Of a DNA stretch of 64,000 nt, positions 1 to 64,000 are shown one piece after another. This DNA is from Candidatus Parcubacteria bacterium (GTDB lineage: Bacteria; Patescibacteriota; Minisyncoccia; UBA6257; JAGOQP01). The DNA lies in NCBI GenBank assembly GCA_025999395.1, contig AP024682.1, forward strand, positions 237,638-301,637, in the 5' to 3' direction. The notes beneath the pieces are model-generated. The model was not told the origin of the DNA. It made no database searches and saw nothing but the letters and a program-made list of their open reading frames with translations. Position 1 is the first letter of the stretch. Each line of letters begins with the position of its first letter. Position numbers and translations under genes: made by a program.

Positions 1-3000
1 GGGACACAAGATGTTGGAGTAAGTGTAAGCATCAAGAATTTTTCTGTTTCTGGTAGTAGTATCTCATTTACCGCCGAGGGTAATAGTTTTTACAAACTTC
101 ATTATTGTTCATTAACAACTGATGGAACAAAGCCTGTGAGTTTGAATGCGTATATTGATAACATTCTTAGAGCTAGTGTTACGGTTAATCCTCAATCATC
201 TACTGATCCAGATTATTCCTACGATTTTTCAATTTCAGGTATAGCCGAAGGATACCATATCTTAAAGGTCACCGCTAGTTCTAATGGAACAAATGATGAA
301 GCAAATCTTTCTTTTAATATACCAACGACCCCTCCTTCACCTCCCCCAGGGCAAGGAGGAAATCCTTCTCCGGGAACGGCTTATTTTGATCCAACGGCGG
401 TTGTAAATAATCAATCTTATTCTTTTCGTGTAGAAGGGGCACCTGCTAATACCACAGGTGATCTTTATAAGTCTCAGAAAGTTAATGGCGTTTGGCAAAA
501 TTGGCAAGTTAGTAATGATTGGATCGTAACTAATAGTAGTGGAAGTGCTACTAAAGGACCTTGGACATGTACCAGCGCCACAGCCGGTGAATTTAAAGTA
601 AAGATAAAGTGGGATGGTTATAATGATTTGGAAACACCCGAAGCTTATTTTAAATGTACTTACTATCCACCACCGACCGCTTTTGCATCTATTAGCCCAT
701 CGCAGATGGTTGTTGGAGGTGGAAATGTAAATTTTAATTGGGGCGGGGGGCCATTTTGTCAAGCGACTCTGAGTGCGGGAATTGGTATCAATGTTAGCGG
801 AGAGAGATCATTTTCGTTGCCTGTTATTTTTAACAGCGCGACTAACGATCCGGTAGACTATCGGCTTTCTGTTACTTGTCACAATGAAGTCGGTGAGATA
901 GCTCAAAGTAGCGCAAGCTTTAATGGTTTTTGGAGTTATGCTCACTGGTATGCTTTTAAGAAAAATAGCTGTGAAGCTGCTGATAATACAGCCCAAAGGG
1001 AAACAACTTTAGAAGGTAAGAATGGAGTTAGGTTCACTGCTAAAAGAGTTTATTCTGATAACGGGGATATTACCACTTGGCCCGATAGTTATCTAAATGA
1101 TGGTGACGATCGAGTTTGGTCGTATAATAATAATCACCAAGCTACTTACTCTGTTGATAGTGTAACACTAGTTCCTTCCGGTTATAAATACTGCAGTAAT
1201 AGTGGACCTGTGACTTTTTCTGATCCAACAGTGCCTAAAGAAGATACAATTAAATTATATTTCGCACCAAGTGTAGGTGGTGGACAACAATACACTCTCT
1301 CTGTATCTAAATCGGGTACAGGTAGCGGAACAGTTATCTCGAATCCATCAGGAATTAACTGTGGTGCTGATTGCACTGAGAGCTATAACTCTGGCACTCA
1401 AGTTACTCTCATAGCTAACCCTGATTCGGGTTCGAGTTTTATAGGTTGGAGCGGAGATTGTTCAGGAGTAGGAGATTGCATTTTAACGATAAATAACAAC
1501 AAATCAGTAACAGCCACTTTTAATACAAGTAGCATTACTGATCCGCCAAAATCAGCTCCTGATCTTTCCGGAGTAGCTGAGTGTCATATGAATTATCCTA
1601 CTTCATCGGTTCAGTCTTATCTTTCCTGGACAGAGGTGCCGGATGCCACAAGTTATGAGGTTTGGTGGGATAAACTCATTAATCAATTGTTAATAACTAC
1701 TTCCAATTTGTTTTATATCCATCGAGATCTAAATTCCGGTTCTTCATATTCTTATTTTGTTAATGGAAAAAACAGTGTTGGTAGTGGCCCTGATTCTAAT
1801 ACAGTAACCTTAACAATGCCATCTTCTTGTTCTAATCCCCCCCCACCTCCTCCGGGAGCTACTCCAACATTAGTGATTACTCCTAGTTCTCAAACAATTA
1901 GCGTAGGAGATAACGCTTCTTATATTGCCTTGTATGATCCCGATGGTACTCAAGATAGATATGGAGATTTTGATGTAACTCAGTTAGCTAATTGGTCATC
2001 GGATAATTCAACAATTGCTTCTTTACAAGGTAAGGGACTCTTTCGCGGAGAAAAAAGTGGCTCCACTCTTGTCCATGCTACCTATCAAGGGTTAACTGCC
2101 AATGCTTCTATTAGTGTTTTGGCAGAAAATGATTTTTCTCTTTCTATTACTCCAAATTTGAGAGAAGTTCAGAAACCCGGTCAAGCTCAATATACTGTTA
2201 CCGTTTCAAAGATAGGAAATTTCAGTGGGAATGTTACTCTTTCAGCACCAAAGCTTCCAGTGGGAGTAACAGCTAGTTTTTCTCCTCAAGTTGTTTTGGG
2301 AGGAAGTGGAACTTCTACTTTAACTCTTAATGTAAGCAATGATGCTTTAATAGGAAGATCAACTTTTGATGTAAAGGGAGTGAGTGGAAATCTATCTCAT
2401 CTTGCTCAAGCGGATATCAACATTACAGGTACACCTCCGCAGCTTTCCTGTACAGTTATTCCCAATCCGCAAAGTGGTCAAGCACCATTAACAACCACAG
2501 TTTCTGCTACTGGTTCTGGAGGAAGCGGTAATTATCGTTATCGTTTTGATTGGGAAAGTGATGGTACTTATGATACAGGATTTGTTACTTCTCCTAAGCA
2601 GCACACTTACACTAGTAATGGTACTTATCGAATCACCGTTGAGGTAAAAGATTTATCTGACAACAGTACTGCTACTTGCAATACAGGAGTAGCTTCTGGC
2701 TCGTGTCAAGGCTCAAGCTGTGATGTTTGTGTCGGTGATAACTGTGGAGGAAATCAGCCCTCGGTGGATTTGAAAGTTAATGGTAGTGACGGTCCCTTAA
2801 CCTTAGCTTATCTGCCGGGGAGTAACTTTGGAGCAACGATGGATGTAAACTGGCAGGCAAGCAATGTTTCTTCTTGTACTGCTTCAGCTTCTCCTGAGGT
2901 AACTGGCTGGAGCGGGGTTTTGCCTTCTTTGTCAGGGCAAGTTTCTGCTTATGCTTTTGATGTCAATCCCGATCCCAATCAGGGAACTAATTATCAACTT

Positions 3001-3351
3001 CAAATTACTTGTAATCCTACCGATTCGGTTTCGGTAAATGTAGTTAAGTGTGGCCCAGGATCAGAAAGTGTTCCTCAGTGTCAACAATTAGATGCTTGTT
3101 ATTTAACAGCAACTCCTTCCACGATTATTTCGGGCCAGTTTACAACCTTAGAGTGGGGCTGCACTAATCCTCAAGGAAAAACATGCACCATCGAGCAGGG
3201 AATTGGTGATGTTAGTCCAGAAGGAGGCACCAAGAGAGTCAATCCTCGTCAAACTACTACTTATACTCTTTCCTGCACCGGAGTAGATGATTCTTATGTA
3301 ACTGTAAGAGTTAGCTTCTTAAAGAAGATTAGGGAAATAATTCCTTGGTAG
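1..3351 (+). CDS. Giant extracellular multidomain protein, 5'-truncated by the window edge. Contains an InlB B-repeat-like module, an FN3-like module, a Big_2-like Ig module, a PKD-like module and C-terminal Cys-paired beta modules.
   Basis: Frame 1 has no stop from nt 1, so the gene continues upstream of the listed ATG at 136. The motif TLSVSKSGTGSGTVISNPSGINCGADCTESYNSGTQVTLIANPDSGSSFIGWSGDCSG matches the Listeria-Bacteroides InlB B-repeat. YRYRFDWESDGTYDTG...GTYRITVEVKD resembles a PKD domain. TLVITPSSQTISVGDNASY resembles Big_2. SWTEVPDATSYEVWW resembles FN3. The N-terminal part is paralogous to the middle of the 58475..60337 protein. Confidence 0.6.
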   Translation, partial: GTQDVGVSVSIKNFSVSGSSISFTAEGNSFYKLHYCSLTTDGTKPVSLNAYIDNILRASVTVNPQSSTDPDYSYDFSISGIAEGYHILKVTASSNGTNDEANLSFNIPTTPPSPPPGQGGNPSPGTAYFDPTAVVNNQSYSFRVEGAPANTTGDLYKSQKVNGVWQNWQVSNDWIVTNSSGSATKGPWTCTSATAGEFKVKIKWDGYNDLETPEAYFKCTYYPPPTAFASISPSQMVVGGGNVNFNWGGGPFCQATLSAGIGINVSGERSFSLPVIFNSATNDPVDYRLSVTCHNEVGEIAQSSASFNGFWSYAHWYAFKKNSCEAADNTAQRETTLEGKNGVRFTAKRVYSDNGDITTWPDSYLNDGDDRVWSYNNNHQATYSVDSVTLVPSGYKYCSNSGPVTFSDPTVPKEDTIKLYFAPSVGGGQQYTLSVSKSGTGSGTVISNPSGINCGADCTESYNSGTQVTLIANPDSGSSFIGWSGDCSGVGDCILTINNNKSVTATFNTSSITDPPKSAPDLSGVAECHMNYPTSSVQSYLSWTEVPDATSYEVWWDKLINQLLITTSNLFYIHRDLNSGSSYSYFVNGKNSVGSGPDSNTVTLTMPSSCSNPPPPPPGATPTLVITPSSQTISVGDNASYIALYDPDGTQDRYGDFDVTQLANWSSDNSTIASLQGKGLFRGEKSGSTLVHATYQGLTANASISVLAENDFSLSITPNLREVQKPGQAQYTVTVSKIGNFSGNVTLSAPKLPVGVTASFSPQVVLGGSGTSTLTLNVSNDALIGRSTFDVKGVSGNLSHLAQADINITGTPPQLSCTVIPNPQSGQAPLTTTVSATGSGGSGNYRYRFDWESDGTYDTGFVTSPKQHTYTSNGTYRITVEVKDLSDNSTATCNTGVASGSCQGSSCDVCVGDNCGGNQPSVDLKVNGSDGPLTLAYLPGSNFGATMDVNWQASNVSSCTASASPEVTGWSGVLPSLSGQVSAYAFDVNPDPNQGTNYQLQITCNPTDSVSVNVVKCGPGSESVPQCQQLDACYLTATPSTIISGQFTTLEWGCTNPQGKTCTIEQGIGDVSPEGGTKRVNPRQTTTYTLSCTGVDDSYVTVRVSFLKKIREIIPW

Positions 3352-53620: not shown

Positions 53621-54634
53621 ATGAATTCGGAACTTCGTTATCATCAAACATTGGGAGAATGGGTGTTGATTGCCCCTCGGCGTCAGGATGGCAAAAAAAA
53701 GCCCAATGAGTTTAAAAAATATCTTTCAATTGAAAGAAAACCTTCTCCTTTAAAAACTTGTCCTTTCGAAGATGAAAATTTAAAGAGAAGTGGGAATTTT
53801 CCTCCTTATTTTTGGTTTCCGGAAACTAAGCCGTTGGAAAAATGGAGCCTTCAGGTCCTTCCTAACAAATTTCCGGCACTTGAAAAAATTTCTGACTGTC
53901 GGATCGAAAAAAGAGGAATTTATTTTGTTGCTCGGGGAGTAGGTTCTCATGATTTAGTTATTACTCGCAATCACTTTCATTCTTTTGGGGATCTAAAAAA
54001 TCAGGAAGCGGAAGAAGTTTTTTTGGCTTTTCAGAAAAGGTTTCGACAGCTGGCCTTAAATAAAAAGATTGCTTACATTTCTATTTTTTGTAATTGGGGA
54101 CCTCAGGCCGGCGCCAGCATTTTTCATCCTCATTATCAAATAATTGGTTTGCCAGTCATTCCTCATTCTGTTAGTCGGTCTCTTTTGATTTCTAAAGATT
54201 ATTTTAGAAAAAACAAAAGGTGTATTCACTGCGATGTTTTAAAAGAGGAAATGAAAGAAAAAAAGAGAATTGTTTATGAAAATAAGAATTATTTAGCTTT
54301 TGTTCCCTTTGCCTCTAAAGAGCCGTTTTGGGTAAGCGTTTTTCCTAAAAAACATCAGCCCTTTTTTGAAGATTTATCTCAAAAAGATTTGAAAGAAGCA
54401 GCTCTTGTTGTAAAAAAAATACTGGCTTTGATTAAAAGGAAATTAAATGATCCTGATTACAATTTCTTCATTCATACTGCTCCCTTAATTGAGAAGAAAA
54501 AGCATACTCATTATCATTGGCATTTAGAAATAGTTCCTAAATCAAATATTTCAGCCGGATTTGAATTAGGAACAGGAATTGAAATTAATCCCGTTTTTCC
54601 TGAAGAAGCGGCTCGCTTTTTGAAGAGTAAGTAA
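53621..54634 (+). CDS. Galactose-1-phosphate uridylyltransferase-family (GalT/HIT-like) nucleotidyltransferase.
   Basis: CPFEDEN and CIHCD zinc-site-like Cys pairs. HPHYQIIG matches the GalT HxHxQ active-site motif. Confidence 0.55.
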   Translation: MNSELRYHQTLGEWVLIAPRRQDGKKKPNEFKKYLSIERKPSPLKTCPFEDENLKRSGNFPPYFWFPETKPLEKWSLQVLPNKFPALEKISDCRIEKRGIYFVARGVGSHDLVITRNHFHSFGDLKNQEAEEVFLAFQKRFRQLALNKKIAYISIFCNWGPQAGASIFHPHYQIIGLPVIPHSVSRSLLISKDYFRKNKRCIHCDVLKEEMKEKKRIVYENKNYLAFVPFASKEPFWVSVFPKKHQPFFEDLSQKDLKEAALVVKKILALIKRKLNDPDYNFFIHTAPLIEKKKHTHYHWHLEIVPKSNISAGFELGTGIEINPVFPEEAARFLKSK

Positions 54635-58335: not shown

Positions 58336-58474
58336 CTTTTGTAAGAAAACCAAGTTTTATTTTTAAATTACCATTAAATCATCTATTAATATATAAGTAT
58401 TTTCTTGTTAAAATTATAAAAATCACTTACCTTTTGTTTTATTATAATTAATACATTTTATTAATTTTGATTGT

Positions 58475-60337
58475 ATGCAAAAAACAAAAAACAAGGGAAT
58501 TTTTTTATCGAGTACTTCTATTACTACCTTTATTTTTTTAATTGCGCTTTTCAATGTTATTAATTTTGCAACCAATCTGGCTTTAGCGGTTCAAGAAGAT
58601 GGAGGTTGCGAATACACTGGTAATGGTTATCTTTGCGGAGGTGAGTGGTATGAAGGAGGAAGCAGTGGAGGAGGAGAAGGAGGTGGAGGAACTGGCGGGG
58701 GATTAGCTTCTGCTATTGGTAAAGTGGCGGCCACAGCTGATGAAGCTATTCAGCTTAGAAGAACAGTTAAAGATTATGCTTATGGAGCTTGTGCTACTAT
58801 TCCAAATCCTTTTAAGATAGCTGCTTTGCCAGGAAAGATTCTTGAATTGAAATTAAAAGTGGCTGAATTACAAGCACGAATCTTACAAGACGGTCCGCTT
58901 TCGTTAACTTCGAAGTTTGATGATTTAGTTAAGAAAACAGATGAATTTACTTTCTATGCTCTTCAAACTACTTTACCAGGAGGATGTCATAAAAGCAAAA
59001 TTGATAGTACTTCTAAGGATTTGAATGATTTACTTGTTTTTATAAGAGATGAAGCGGCCAAGGATTTTCTTTCTTCTAAACTACCTCAAGTTATTACTTT
59101 AGCCGCCAACAATATTTCAAGTGTTTCAGCGACTTTGAGGGGTTCGGTAAGTCCGCCAGCTCAAAACAGCGCCGTCTACTGGTTTGAGTGGGGCGAAAAT
59201 CAAAGTGATCTTTCTAAAAAAACAACAGAAAAAACAACAGGCATTGTTTCCTCTTTAAGTGTTTCTGAAAACATTTCCGGATTAACAGTGGGAAAAACCT
59301 ACTATTTTAGAGTAGCGGCTCGAACGGAGGGAAAAAGTAAAGTAGCCTACGGTCAGATTTTAAGTTTTGTTGCTCAATCAACTAGTTCTCAACAATTCAC
59401 TCTCACTGTTTCCAAATCAGGAACAGGAAGTGGAACTGTTACCTCAACTCCCACAGGAATTAATTGTGGTACTGATTGTAGTGAATCTTATGCTTCTGGT
59501 ACTTCTGTTACTCTTCGGGCTACTGCAAGTGCAGGCTCAGTTTTTGCTGGCTGGAGTGGGGATTGTTCGGGAACAGGAACTTGTACAGTAGCATTAGATA
59601 GTAATAAAACAGTAACTGCTACTTTCAATTCTTCAAGTGGTGGCAGCGGAGGAACCCTTTCTTATAGTCAGGAGCATAGTTATTATGGCGATACTTATTA
59701 TTTAACGGTTTCTAATGGGCCGGCTTCTTTAAGTGGCACTCTTTATAAACGAACCAAAAATACTGTTGATGATAACTGGGGTAATTGGGTAACAAGTTCT
59801 AATTGGATTCAAACAGATAATCAAGGAAACGCAAGAAAACCAGCTGGAAGTGGTACTTGGACTTGTTTAGAAGCAGATCCAGATGTTGCCGAAATTTATA
59901 TAAAGTGGTCAAATGGACTTGAAACAAACCGCGCCGTTCATTACTGTACAGTAAGAGAAAATAACTCTCAACAATTCACTCTCACTGTTTCCAAATCAGG
60001 AACAGGAAGTGGAACTGTTACCTCAACTCCCACAGGAATTAATTGTGGTACTGATTGTAGTGAATCTTATGCTTCTGGTACTTCTGTTACTCTTCGGGCT
60101 ACTGCAAGTGCAGGCTCAGTTTTTGCTGGCTGGAGTGGGGATTGTTCGGGAACAGGAACTTGTACAGTAGCATTAGATAGTAATAAAACAGTAACTGCTA
60201 CTTTTAATCACATGTCTGTGAGTAGTGGAGATCCTTCGGTTAATGGTGAAAATCAACCAGGTCCGTCTGGTACCTACACTCTTTCTCTGAAACTAGGGCA
60301 TTTTCAAGGAGGTTCATCCTTTGTTGAGGATCGGTAA
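58475..60337 (+). CDS. Secreted multidomain surface protein, paralogue of the 1..3351 protein, with two identical InlB-B-repeat modules.
   Basis: Signal/TM at the N-terminus. A Gly-rich linker and an FN3-like module. The module QQFTLTVSKSGTGSGTVTSTPTGINCGTDCSESYASGTSVTLRATASAGSVFAGWSGDCSGTGTCTVALDSNKTVTATFN occurs twice. The segment between the two copies is homologous to the N-terminal region of the 1..3351 protein. Confidence 0.55.
   Translation: MQKTKNKGIFLSSTSITTFIFLIALFNVINFATNLALAVQEDGGCEYTGNGYLCGGEWYEGGSSGGGEGGGGTGGGLASAIGKVAATADEAIQLRRTVKDYAYGACATIPNPFKIAALPGKILELKLKVAELQARILQDGPLSLTSKFDDLVKKTDEFTFYALQTTLPGGCHKSKIDSTSKDLNDLLVFIRDEAAKDFLSSKLPQVITLAANNISSVSATLRGSVSPPAQNSAVYWFEWGENQSDLSKKTTEKTTGIVSSLSVSENISGLTVGKTYYFRVAARTEGKSKVAYGQILSFVAQSTSSQQFTLTVSKSGTGSGTVTSTPTGINCGTDCSESYASGTSVTLRATASAGSVFAGWSGDCSGTGTCTVALDSNKTVTATFNSSSGGSGGTLSYSQEHSYYGDTYYLTVSNGPASLSGTLYKRTKNTVDDNWGNWVTSSNWIQTDNQGNARKPAGSGTWTCLEADPDVAEIYIKWSNGLETNRAVHYCTVRENNSQQFTLTVSKSGTGSGTVTSTPTGINCGTDCSESYASGTSVTLRATASAGSVFAGWSGDCSGTGTCTVALDSNKTVTATFNHMSVSSGDPSVNGENQPGPSGTYTLSLKLGHFQGGSSFVEDR
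59387..59629 (+). repeat. Direct repeat copy 1 (243 bp), one mismatch versus copy 2.
   Basis: Nucleotide-identical to 59966..60208 apart from a C/T at the last codon (59626 vs 60205). The offset is 579 bp, which is 193 codons. Confidence 0.9.
59966..60208 (+). repeat. Direct repeat copy 2 (243 bp).
   Basis: See copy 1. Confidence 0.9.
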
Positions 60338-60367
60338 CTAACCAACACCGAAAAATCTCAACTCAAG

Positions 60368-62419
60368 GTGGAAATTTGGACTCAGTCTACAGGAATTTAT
60401 AGCAGTGGTACAAAAGTTGCCGAAGGCAGTCTTGATTCTCCTATCTCTTTAAGTCCCGGGACTTATCAGGCGGTTTTGAAAGGTTCTTTACCCTCACCTT
60501 ATAATGCTACCAAGCAAGTTCCCTTAAATTGTGTTTTCTTCTCAATTTCTTCTTCTCAGTCAACCGGAGTAACCTGCACTCTTGAGGCTTACAACAAAAA
60601 CGATACTAGCAATTATAATCTTCCCTCATCAGAAAGACCCTCCGGTGCCCCACCAATGGTAGAAGTTGATTCGTCTCTAGGTTCCTATCAGTTTGTTAAA
60701 AATGTGGTGGATATAAGCGAAGATGGTCCTAGTAGTAGTATTACTTCTATTAAGTTTGCTACCTTATACGGCAAAAAAGTAATGTTAATTGGGACAAGAA
60801 AGTACTTAGATTCAAGTAGAAGATATGAATATAAGCTTTCGATTTATGATATAGCCAATCCGTTTAATCCTCAATTACTTAAGGAAAATACTTTTTCGGA
60901 TGATTCTGCTGAGGTAAAGAGTATTTTACTTGGCGCTGCTGATTTCTCACAGCTAACGATTCTCGATAATCATCCGGTGATTTATGGGCGTCCCAATTAT
61001 GCTGCAACTGGTGCTGTTCATGTTTTTGTCAAAATTAACCCCGACTGGAGTTTAGGCGATATTCAAGATTTTGATGTTAAAGAAAGTGGAGGCAGTATTA
61101 GTAATAAGTATGTTCCTACCACTTTATTCCGCGGCTTAGATGGGAAACCGTATGCTTTAGCATACGATACTTCAGAGGGCTATGGTTGCAACAACATTAA
61201 AATTTTAGATGTCTCGTCTTCTACTGCTTCTATTATTGGCGAGATAAAAGAATCAGAACTGAATATAGGTTATTGCGAGTCGGGAATAGATTATAATAAT
61301 TCAAAATCTATCAGATGGTTTGCTGCTCAGCCAGTGCGTGCTTCAAGCGGAAAATTATATCTGGTTATTCCAACCGACGATGCAGTTGCTCGTCTTCATA
61401 CCTCAGAACGAGCTTGGATTTCTGTTTTTGATGTTAGCAACCCTTCTAATCCTCAGTTTGTTGGTAAATGGCAAATGAGCGGATTAAATGGTCAGCTTCA
61501 TTTTCCTGATGCGTCGGAATCTGAAAAAGCCAAAATTTATGCTGATGCTGGCTTAATAGAAGTTGATCCAGTAACCGGCTATGTCTACGATATTTTTCCC
61601 CATATGTATGACTTTCAAAACGGAGCTTATATGACAAGTGGAGAAGCAGTTAACGCCTTCAACAAAATCTCCGGTCCTTGGCGTTATCGCAACGGCATTA
61701 TTATCAGAAAACTGAACAACTCCGGTAATTTTGATTTTGTTTATCGAGCTACTTTGTGTGAAACTGAGGGGAGCAGACCAAGCGGTAGTCAGTCTGGTAG
61801 CTTTCACCGGGTAGAATGTGGCGACCAAGCCGAATGGTGGGGCAACAAAACTTTTGATGAAGCTTTTTATGGCATTGGAGGTTATATAACAATACTACCA
61901 TTGCCTGGAACTCACGCTTATAATGGTTTGGTTTTATTGAGGGATCTTACTAAATCCTCTATTGAAGAAAGTGGGCTAAGATTGGGTGGCAAAAAAATTA
62001 AAATGATTGCTGGTTCCCCAGTGGTTGTTGGCTTAATGACTTCTGATAATAAATTCAAAATTATCCCTGATTCTTCAGATGAATTTCTTAAATTCTCGGG
62101 TTCGCTTGCAAAAATTATTAGCACCGGTCAATACACAAATTATGGCAAATATCTCTTTGATGCCCATCTTCAACAAGTCGATAATAAAACCTTTGCTATC
62201 TTCCAGATTCATCCCACCTCAATTGATGTGGTTAAACTCACTTTAACTCAACCTCGTCCTCTTCCTTCAAGTAGCCCCTCTTTTACTCCTCAGGCTACTA
62301 CAATGACTCTTACTACTGCTTCTGCTACACCCTCAACAGGAACCTCCTCTTCCATTCAAGGAACTCTCTATTCTATTAGAAGTATTCTTAATAATTTAAG
62401 AAGAATTCTAAGTAGATAA
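60368..62419 (+). CDS. LVIVD-repeat beta-propeller protein with a Ser/Thr/Pro-rich C-terminal tail. It is in the same frame as the upstream surface-protein gene, separated only by a TAA.
   Basis: YKLSIYDIANPFNPQLL and WISVFDVSNPSNPQFVGKW are LVIVD-repeat signatures. GTG start. No signal peptide and no convincing RBS. Confidence 0.5.
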   Translation: MEIWTQSTGIYSSGTKVAEGSLDSPISLSPGTYQAVLKGSLPSPYNATKQVPLNCVFFSISSSQSTGVTCTLEAYNKNDTSNYNLPSSERPSGAPPMVEVDSSLGSYQFVKNVVDISEDGPSSSITSIKFATLYGKKVMLIGTRKYLDSSRRYEYKLSIYDIANPFNPQLLKENTFSDDSAEVKSILLGAADFSQLTILDNHPVIYGRPNYAATGAVHVFVKINPDWSLGDIQDFDVKESGGSISNKYVPTTLFRGLDGKPYALAYDTSEGYGCNNIKILDVSSSTASIIGEIKESELNIGYCESGIDYNNSKSIRWFAAQPVRASSGKLYLVIPTDDAVARLHTSERAWISVFDVSNPSNPQFVGKWQMSGLNGQLHFPDASESEKAKIYADAGLIEVDPVTGYVYDIFPHMYDFQNGAYMTSGEAVNAFNKISGPWRYRNGIIIRKLNNSGNFDFVYRATLCETEGSRPSGSQSGSFHRVECGDQAEWWGNKTFDEAFYGIGGYITILPLPGTHAYNGLVLLRDLTKSSIEESGLRLGGKKIKMIAGSPVVVGLMTSDNKFKIIPDSSDEFLKFSGSLAKIISTGQYTNYGKYLFDAHLQQVDNKTFAIFQIHPTSIDVVKLTLTQPRPLPSSSPSFTPQATTMTLTTASATPSTGTSSSIQGTLYSIRSILNNLRRILSR

Positions 62420-62676
62420 TACTGGAAGCATTATATTTTCTTAGCTTTCTCTTTTTAGAGCAGAATTTTCTTGTTGAGTAAACAGTAAGAACAAATGCGA
62501 GGCAGCGGGTGAGCTTAATCTTGTTTCTTACATGTTTGCTGATTTTTTAGGGGTGGTGAGGCAATTTTTGTGTTTTTATTTTTCAAAACTTAGTGTAAAA
62601 TAAAAATGGTGGCGGAAAATGCTCACTCAAGTAAGAAAAAAAACAGGAGCCTACCTTTCCGCCACCATTTTTATTA

Positions 62677-63681
62677 ATGGTGAAAAAAGAAGTAAAATCA
62701 AAAAATTTCTTTTCTGCCCTTATTAGCGGAGGTCTGAAAAGAAATGTTTCATTAAAAAATTACAGTCATCTAAAAATTGGAGGCAGAGCCAGTTATTTTT
62801 TTAAGGCTTCGAAAATCGGTGATTTAATTTTAACTTTAACCTGGTGGCTTAATTCTTTTCCTCAAAAACCAATTTTTGTTTTGGGCGAGGGGACAAATGT
62901 TTTATTTAAGGGTGACTTTTTTGATGGCTTGGTGATTAAGATGGATTTAAAGAAATTGGATTATTTAGGGAAAGGCTTGGTTTTTGCGGAAGCGGGAGTT
63001 TCGATGAGGAAGTTAGTTAATTTTTGTTTTCAGAAAAAGTTGGCAGGATTAGAGTGGGCAGCGGGATTACCAGGAACAGTGGGGGGAGCGGTTTATGGAA
63101 ATGCTGGTTGTTTTGGGAGGGAAATCAGAGATGTAGTTGAAGGGGTTCTTACTTTGGAAAGAAGGGGGAAAGAGCTTTCTCTTTCTTTAAGAAAAAACAA
63201 AGAATGTTTGTTTAAATATCGGTCCAGTATTTTTAAGAAAAACCAAAAGAAAGGAGAGCTTCTCTTAATTGTTGGAGTTCTTTTAAAATTACAGCCAGTA
63301 AAAGATATAAAACCTTTTAGAGAAAAAGCCTCTTTTATTCTTCGTTATCGTCGTCAAAAACATCCTCTGGATTTTCCAACTCTTGGCAGTACCTTTAAAA
63401 ATATTTCTCTTTCTCGCCTGCCTTCTTCTTTAAGGAATAAATTTCAGGAGAAAATAAAAAATGATCCCTTTTTAGTTCTCCCGGTTGCGGTTCTTTTGGA
63501 AAAAGCAGGCTTAAAGGGAAAAAAGAAAGGGGGAGCGCAGTTTTCTTTGAAGCATCCAAACTTTATTGTTAATCTCGGGAAAGCTACCGCTAAAGATGTT
63601 TTGCAACTTATTGCTTTGGCAAAGAAAAAAGTTTGGAAAAAGTTTCAAGTAAAGATTGAGGAAGAAATTGAAATTGTGTAA
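62677..63681 (+). CDS. murB: UDP-N-acetylenolpyruvoylglucosamine reductase.
   Basis: LKIGGRASYFF, GEGTNVLF, GLEWAAGLPGTVGGAVYGNAGCFGREI. Confidence 0.85.
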   Translation: MVKKEVKSKNFFSALISGGLKRNVSLKNYSHLKIGGRASYFFKASKIGDLILTLTWWLNSFPQKPIFVLGEGTNVLFKGDFFDGLVIKMDLKKLDYLGKGLVFAEAGVSMRKLVNFCFQKKLAGLEWAAGLPGTVGGAVYGNAGCFGREIRDVVEGVLTLERRGKELSLSLRKNKECLFKYRSSIFKKNQKKGELLLIVGVLLKLQPVKDIKPFREKASFILRYRRQKHPLDFPTLGSTFKNISLSRLPSSLRNKFQEKIKNDPFLVLPVAVLLEKAGLKGKKKGGAQFSLKHPNFIVNLGKATAKDVLQLIALAKKKVWKKFQVKIEEEIEIV

Positions 63682-63910
63682 AGCTTTAATTTTTTTTAAA
63701 TTAGAACTTTAGAGAAAGAATAAATTTTTTTTAAAAATTTTTGAATGAAAAATTTTTACTTATCCACAGATTTTTGTTTTTCTTTTTTTAAAAATGTATT
63801 ATAATTAAGTTGATAAAAAATTTTTTAGCGTAATTGGGTGGTCGGCAATTACGCTAAATAAGTGAAATTAATTTTCTTTCTGTTAACAAAAAGCAGAAAG
63901 AAAGAAAATA

Positions 63911-63991
63911 ATGGCTATGAAAAAAAAGGCAGCCAAAAAAACCAAAAAAGCTGCCAAAAAATCAAGCAAAAAATCAAGCAAGAGAAGATAA
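63911..63991 (+). CDS. Possible 26-aa Lys-rich micro-ORF (MAMKKKAAKKTKKAAKKSSKKSSKRR).
   Basis: ATG preceded by an A/G-rich stretch (AAAGAAAGAAAATAATG). Very short, so it could be non-coding. Confidence 0.15.
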   Translation: MAMKKKAAKKTKKAAKKSSKKSSKRR

Positions 63992-64000
63992 AACTTCTTG

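Follow-up and report, generated by a model that had tools for sequence, protein, structure and literature searches.

Whether a lone stop codon between two long open reading frames (ORFs) marks the boundary of two genes, a site of programmed read-through, or an injury to a single gene is the question raised by a locus of a Candidatus Parcubacteria bacterium, of which a stretch of 64,000 nucleotides (assembly GCA_025999395.1, contig AP024682.1, positions 237,638 to 301,637; hereafter the window) was analysed. The source genome, KatS3mg098, is a circular metagenome-assembled genome of 561,860 bp from sediment of the Katase hot spring and is placed by GTDB in Paceibacteria, o__UBA6257, g__GWA1-42-9 (PMC9671151). 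The upstream ORF, at 58475..60337 of the window, starts with ATG and encodes 620 amino acids identical to KatS3mg098_269 (P0010); the downstream ORF, at 60368..62419, starts with GTG and encodes 683 amino acids identical to KatS3mg098_270 (P0001). They are annotated in GenBank as two coding sequences (CDSs), both ‘hypothetical’. A one-frame translation of positions 58400-62500 places both ORFs in the same frame on the + strand, separated by a single stop, the TAA at 60335-60337, which is followed by LTNTEKSQLK and then by the Val of the GTG. The preliminary description of this DNA had reported precisely this geometry, correctly in coordinates and description, and had proposed a single surface protein of 1,300 amino acids cut by a nonsense codon, with recent pseudogenisation, a sequencing error, programmed read-through, and chance as the possibilities. 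The analysis reported here favours, with a probability of roughly 0.75, the reading that the TAA at 60335 is an ordinary and very young nonsense allele truncating one surface-protein gene. The two ORFs are the pieces of a single 1,314-codon gene for a secreted surface protein; the size first proposed was roughly right, the restored protein having exactly 1,314 amino acids.

The layout of the two ORFs cannot settle the matter. Four other neighbouring ORF pairs within the window also share a frame with one stop between them, and the same-frame arrangement alone is not beyond chance; the one-gene question was therefore decided by homology. A protein search with the junction region returned P0002 (812 amino acids, partial) and P0003 (1,054 amino acids), both of which span the junction and read ...FVEDRQLTNTEKSQLKVEIWTQ..., with Gln at the position of the window's stop. 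The preliminary description had suggested looking for orthologues that are single fused ORFs, and one such orthologue, P0158, uninterrupted over 1,330 amino acids, was found by cluster look-up in the syntenic slot of locus L007 (GCA_900175145.1), which has the gene order GalT/HIT, VTT, TIM, SIMPL, alpha/beta-hydrolase, GtrA, the gene in question, and MurB in common with the window. In a tblastn comparison, residues 1-1330 of P0158 align to window positions 58475-62416 in a single high-scoring segment pair, in one frame, at 78.6% identity and across the TAA, with residues 1-623 falling on the product of the upstream ORF. At the site itself, CAA (Gln) is found in all three distinct orthologous sequences, namely L001, L002/L008, and L007. 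L001 represents the same species as the window (97.9% identity over 62021-64000, a contiguous block that takes in the end of the gene and the sequence downstream of it), and between it and window positions 60244-60522 the T/C at 60335 is the sole difference in 279 nucleotides. The GTG at 60368-60370, annotated as the start of KatS3mg098_270, is by read-across from the orthologues the internal Val codon 632, since these proteins run ...KSQLKVEIWTQ... through that codon. In the one-frame translation, the 693 codons 3' of the TAA are free of additional stops and frameshifts. Profile scans of metagenome and genome contigs returned only the Joint Genome Institute (JGI) contig already in the set and the distant relative L004, with no further copy of the junction, and a profile search of a word-indexed protein database gave no new relatives.

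The position of the stop within the protein points in the same direction. In the paralogues (KatS3mg098_079, which is P0005, and KatS3mg098_509, which is P0006, in the same genome; P0004 and P0007-9 elsewhere), the signal peptide is followed directly by ‘GTF.HYVKLGHWQGSTFVEDE...KVEVWTQ’, and this is the domain that straddles the window's stop. Delimited by its invariant residues, the AlphaFold2 (AF2) model, and the family profile, this junction domain covers residues ~598-705 (60266..60589) and is a predicted beta-sandwich of distantly prealbumin/SpaA-like character, the profile matching SpaA_4/prealbumin-like repeats through it. The family-invariant G599, G608, and F616 are encoded 5' of the TAA and the remaining invariant residues 3' of it. 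In the AF2 model of P0002 (mean predicted local distance difference test score, pLDDT, of 62.8, with 70-85 in the junction domain), strands at residues 98-110 and 114-119 precede Q120, the equivalent of the stop, while a helix at 123-128 and strands across 130-205 follow it. On this model, some 23 of the roughly 110 residues of the conserved beta-sandwich precede the stop. The missing signal peptide of the downstream ORF, which the preliminary description had brought forward, remains a valid argument: its N-terminus is not hydrophobic, with a maximal Kyte-Doolittle mean over 15 residues (KD15) of 0.61 against 2.0-2.8 for the upstream ORF and the paralogues. The accompanying argument, that the GTG at 60368 lacks a plausible Shine-Dalgarno (SD) sequence, held as an observation, no SD-like match being present before this codon, and failed as evidence. 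SD motifs are almost absent across the window, where the upstream regions are merely AT-rich and only 4 of the 56 ORFs on the + strand have a match of at least 5 nucleotides to the anti-SD complement within 22 nucleotides upstream; because nearly every gene in the window (52 of the 56) is without one, its absence is uninformative and was dropped as a one-gene argument. An internal promoter or terminator was likewise rejected, as a scan at the junction gave nothing beyond shuffle expectation, and the sole strong -35/-10 match lies at 60476-60505, that is, 3' of the GTG.

Taken as a mutation, the TAA (codon 621, 60335..60337) would be one C-to-T transition that converted CAA (Gln) to TAA in the assembled KatS3mg098 genome, and, as it is the lone difference in 279 nucleotides from L001, a very recent one. 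Residue 620, within the beta-sandwich domain, would then be the last one translated, and the product would be an exported fragment devoid of both the propeller and the conserved C-terminal tail of the intact protein. The downstream ORF of 683 codons would not be an independent gene; re-initiation at the GTG at 60368 would yield a cytoplasmic product that has no signal peptide and whose first domain is broken. The ratio of nonsynonymous to synonymous substitution rates (dN/dS) of the window against its orthologues ranges from 0.07 to 0.39 by segment; against L007, it is 0.15 upstream of the stop and 0.24 downstream, and the neighbouring housekeeping genes give 0.05-0.13. By these ratios, both halves of the gene evolved under purifying selection, and the whole gene was functional until very recently. 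With dN/dS below 1 on both sides and no decay in 693 codons, the loss is therefore considered recent, and pseudogenisation (or truncation) of recent date is the best fit among the possibilities raised earlier. The mutation would be very young, and the cell can probably do without the gene, as at least two of its paralogues in the genome (KatS3mg098_079 and _509) are intact.

Several other explanations should be given fair weight. Two genuine separate genes, adjacent and in the same frame by chance, would agree with the two CDSs in the GenBank annotation and with the four comparable pairs in the window; this is nevertheless considered to have almost no chance of being correct, since the stop splits a conserved domain, the orthologues are single ORFs, the downstream ORF is without the signal peptide that every paralogue has, and the relatives have an internal Val codon at the position of its GTG. 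Chance, as one of the earlier possibilities, is thus ruled out by the split domain and the single-ORF orthologues, and the proposal of one surface protein cut by a nonsense codon is borne out by the same evidence together with the CAA at the site. Whether the TAA is present in the organism is a separate matter. It is judged quite probably a real allele, and the alternative, that it is an error of sequencing or of the consensus, or a minority variant that entered the consensus although the dominant genome is intact with CAA, is regarded as rather unlikely. Four points weigh against a real truncating allele: the genome was assembled with metaFlye 2.8.3 from PacBio HiFi reads kept at >Q20, at a coverage of only 6.8x (PMC9671151); an artefact would look just like the single difference in 279 nucleotides otherwise identical to L001; the undecayed downstream frame would be equally expected if the TAA were artefactual; and the expression of the gene and the truncation of its product are inferred. 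Against an artefact, position 60335 lies outside any homopolymer, no other broken gene was seen among the neighbours compared with L007 or L001, and an independent nonsense allele in another population (described below) indicates that real ones occur in this gene. Errors of HiFi reads are mainly homopolymer indels and not substitutions, and a consensus substitution in a HiFi assembly needs several concordant reads, such errors being uncommon.

A further alternative is read-through or recoding of the TAA, as a programmed event or a tolerated leak, which would supply the full-length protein at a regulated low level. As in programmed recoding, of which the Q-beta A1 protein (UGA read-through), selenocysteine insertion at UGA, and the use of UGA for Gly under code 25 in Gracilibacteria and Absconditabacteria are examples, a long, open, and conserved frame continues beyond an in-frame stop. 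The base 3' of the stop is C, which in bacteria generally makes for weak termination, and only 3 of the 39 TAA terminators in the window have this TAA-C context, fewer than any other TAA context; moreover, the gene has another in-frame TAA in the other population. Yet no orthologue shares the stop, CAA standing in its place in all of them, so that the site shows no conservation; the C that follows it comes from an ancestral CAA-CTA, and the two TAAs (codons 621 and 68) stand at unrelated sites in different contexts. Moreover, RF1 and RF2 both recognise UAA, which leaks less than the other stop codons. Reassignment of the codon was rejected from stop usage in the window, where TAA ends 39 of 59 ORFs (TAG 15, TGA 5) and is therefore not reassigned. 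A stimulatory RNA structure was likewise discarded: the 121 nucleotides at 60330-60450 have a minimum free energy of -22.2 kcal/mol, and shuffled sequences fold just as well, with a mean of -22.35 kcal/mol (z = 0.05). No suppressor tRNA was found within the window, where the sole tRNA is a tRNA-Pro, and an Rfam search of the window returned tRNA only. Unlike recoding systems, then, the locus has a stop that is unconserved in orthologues, uses as that stop the main terminator of the window, and has no downstream RNA element; it is not placed in that class because the defining features were looked for and were not found. Programmed read-through, which the preliminary description had listed, is accordingly held to be very improbable, and nothing is changed in the knowledge of the genetic code or of termination.

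The second nonsense allele comes from Great Boiling Spring, Nevada. L002 is a contig from IMG 3300020153, the 60 °C metagenome GBS60 of that spring (PMC6624737). It has an in-frame TAA at 505-507, as does an ENA contig, L008, at 554-556; the position corresponds to window 58676-58678, codon 68, in the Gly-rich linker. Codon 68 is GAA both in the window and in L007, whose flanks around it are identical to those of L002/L008. The two contigs are 100% identical to each other and, as they may derive from the same data, were counted as one observation. The gene on the Nevada contig is split into ORFs of 67 and 1,054 amino acids. Judged from its different site, its G-to-T change, and its origin on another continent, this allele is independent of that in the window. 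Loss-of-function alleles of the surface-protein gene thus occur in nature, which fits dispensability; the allele at codon 68 could also hint at selection against expression. A bolder interpretation would take the TAAs at codons 621 (Japan) and 68 (Nevada) not as mere decay but as selected ‘off’ alleles of a recombining adhesin-like family, which would be favoured recurrently, for instance under phage or host pressure, in a probably host-attached Patescibacteria member, with function later restored by recombination with other strains; in a more exotic variant, low-level UAA read-through would titrate the full-length protein. This interpretation is considered unlikely. Repair of the stop by conversion from the paralogues of the same genome was set aside as unlikely, KatS3mg098_079 and _509 having only 36-50% amino acid identity around the site, and a slipped-strand phase-variable locus found no support, there being no simple repeat at 60335, where the change is a substitution in non-repetitive sequence, as the change at codon 68 is also a substitution.

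For the ordinary nonsense allele favoured here, the closest analogue is the set of natural premature-stop-codon (PMSC) alleles of inlA in Listeria monocytogenes (PMC12427964, PMC9698914). There, inlA likewise encodes a large surface protein with B-repeat-type domains that is cut by natural single-nucleotide nonsense mutations, in independent alleles that affect different codons in different populations and remove the C-terminal region. The present case differs in that it concerns a member of the Patescibacteria and not a Firmicute, in that the protein has a C-terminal amphipathic helix instead of an LPXTG anchor, and in that only two alleles are known, both from sequence. The region lost from the truncated inlA products contains the cell-wall anchor. 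That loss of function is tolerated in nature would suit a role of the present protein at a variable cell-surface or host interface.

For annotation, KatS3mg098_269 and KatS3mg098_270 should be treated as one interrupted gene, and the GTG-start ‘protein’ should not spread through protein databases as a representative of its family; it already serves there as a cluster representative (P0001). The pair formed by P0013 and P0012 was considered as a third ‘split’ member of the family and rejected, the break on L005 being a 10-N scaffold gap. On that contig (GCA_046313515.1, JBKBYN010000087.1), a run of 10 N at 753-764 divides a family member into P0013 of 219 amino acids and P0012 of 290 amino acids, a case that shows how fragments of this surface-protein family become separate entries in protein databases.

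The 5' part of the gene (codons 1-620, KatS3mg098_269, 58475..60334), delimited by the ORF and its alignment to P0158, runs from a signal peptide through a Gly-rich linker, then a helical region and an FN3-like region, to B-repeats 1 and 2 with an insert module between them, and ends with the two opening strands of the junction domain. The signal peptide is of predicted Sec type (residues 1-38, 58475..58588), with a basic n-region followed by a hydrophobic core (maximal KD15 of 2.29), and cleavage, placed by eye and with no dedicated predictor, is likely after A-L-A before VQ. The B-repeats are the two copies, 98% identical and 579 nucleotides apart, of a 250-nucleotide direct repeat (59380..59629 and 59959..60208), recognised by repeat search and by the InlB-type model PF18998. 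The claim of B-repeats in the preliminary description was confirmed above the Pfam threshold in two stretches (PF18998 Flg_new_2, E 1.8e-19, 69.9 bits against a cut-off of 23.6) and also by TIGR02543 (29.5 bits against a cut-off of 20.95); the same two-repeat architecture is present in P0158. Less of the claimed FN3 domain survives, its fn3 match being below the Pfam threshold (E 0.29, 11.8 against 25 bits), as are those to related beta-sandwich models; only the label FN3-like is retained, and NCBI names the N2Z68 fragment an FN3 domain protein. The short-read contigs L002/L008 are without one unit of 579 nucleotides, comprising a B-repeat and the insert module, that is present in both the window and L007; this could reflect either collapse or breakage at the repeat in short-read assembly or a real deletion between the 250-nucleotide direct repeats. 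The L001 contig ends inside a B-repeat. Another large ORF, at window 136-3351 (1,071 amino acids, probably running off the start of the window), has a B-repeat and shares with the interrupted gene the inter-B-repeat module ‘G.LYK...W.NW..SN.WI.T..SG.A.K..WTC’, which is N-terminal in the distant family member P0014.

The 3' part (codons 622-1314 and the natural TAA, 60338..62419; delimited by ORF, homology, and AF2) encodes the rest of the junction domain and a propeller with LVIVD-like blades, followed by a C-terminal beta region, then the P/S/T-rich linker and finally an amphipathic helix of basic character. The propeller region (residues ~730-1258, 60662..62248) is a hyperdivergent mosaic identified through Foldseek and distant LVIVD profile matches. 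The best Foldseek matches of the AF2 model are beta-propellers, and searches with the family profile extend to genuine LVIVD proteins of 5-13 LVIVD repeats at E 1e-9 to 1e-5, the similarity being confined to two blades. The direct LVIVD (PF08309) match is confined to one stretch and lies below threshold (E 0.11, 12.3 against 20.2 bits). The LVIVD label of the preliminary description is therefore weak: the region is a predicted propeller with profile kinship, while membership in LVIVD is not demonstrated; on the predicted fold and this kinship, ‘LVIVD-like propeller’ is acceptable as a description of the C-terminal half. Like LVIVD propellers, the protein is a predicted beta-propeller with two blades of the form ‘..[IV]x[IV][FY]D[IV]SNPxxPxxL’; unlike them, it falls below the Pfam cut-off, has most of its blades without the motif, and possesses an N-terminal prealbumin-like domain and a conserved C-terminal helix that are specific to a small Patescibacteria family. 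Ten relatives were found at E<=1e-30 among 1.84 billion representatives, and a PDB sequence search returned no relative. The P/S/T-rich linker and the C-terminal basic amphipathic helix (..TLYSIRSILNNLRRILSR; 62249..62416) are conserved in all paralogues and in distant members. In every member of the family, the linker is followed by an element that reads roughly F-S-F-x-x-L-L-N-I-F-[KR]-R-I-x-x-[KR]; in P0002, AF2 predicts a helix at residues 799-810 with low pLDDT. This motif may serve to sort or anchor surface proteins in Patescibacteria.

The locus also documents this small Patescibacteria-specific family of large surface proteins as one whose propeller is reshuffled between paralogues and strains. 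The propeller part of the window gene (60523-62240, corresponding to ~550-2260 of L001) is only 63-81% identical to L001 at the nucleotide level, with saturated synonymous divergence (dS), against 95-100% in the flanking segments of the gene (codons 511-720 and 1261-1313). Compared with neighbouring genes, whose dS is 0.05-0.19, the propeller-coding part has a dS of ~1.05 and a dN/dS of 0.24. Within one orthologue, the best-matching paralogue changes from segment to segment (96% against 36-59% amino acid identity): segments of P0002 match P0004 at 96% amino acid identity, whereas those of P0003/P0158 match P0005, with P0003/P0005 identity of up to 88%. By these patterns, the propeller part is a recombination mosaic among paralogues. 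Segmental gene conversion diversifies the surface proteins of other bacteria, as in Borrelia vlsE, Neisseria pilE/pilS, and the variable lipoproteins of Mycoplasma, and the mosaic propeller between flanks of 95-100% identity resembles the vlsE and pilE systems; unlike in those systems, there is no sign of a switching mechanism, of silent cassettes, or of switching within a population, and the pattern is one between assemblies only. Patches of complete identity were also observed in neighbouring genes. The GalT/HIT gene (window 53621-54631) is 100% identical at the nucleotide level to positions 146-1156 of L007, and MurB (window 62677-63678) is 100% identical to positions 2698-3699 of L001; set against the dS of 0.05-0.19 in the neighbours, such patchy identity suggests that hot-spring populations far apart on the map have recombined recently.

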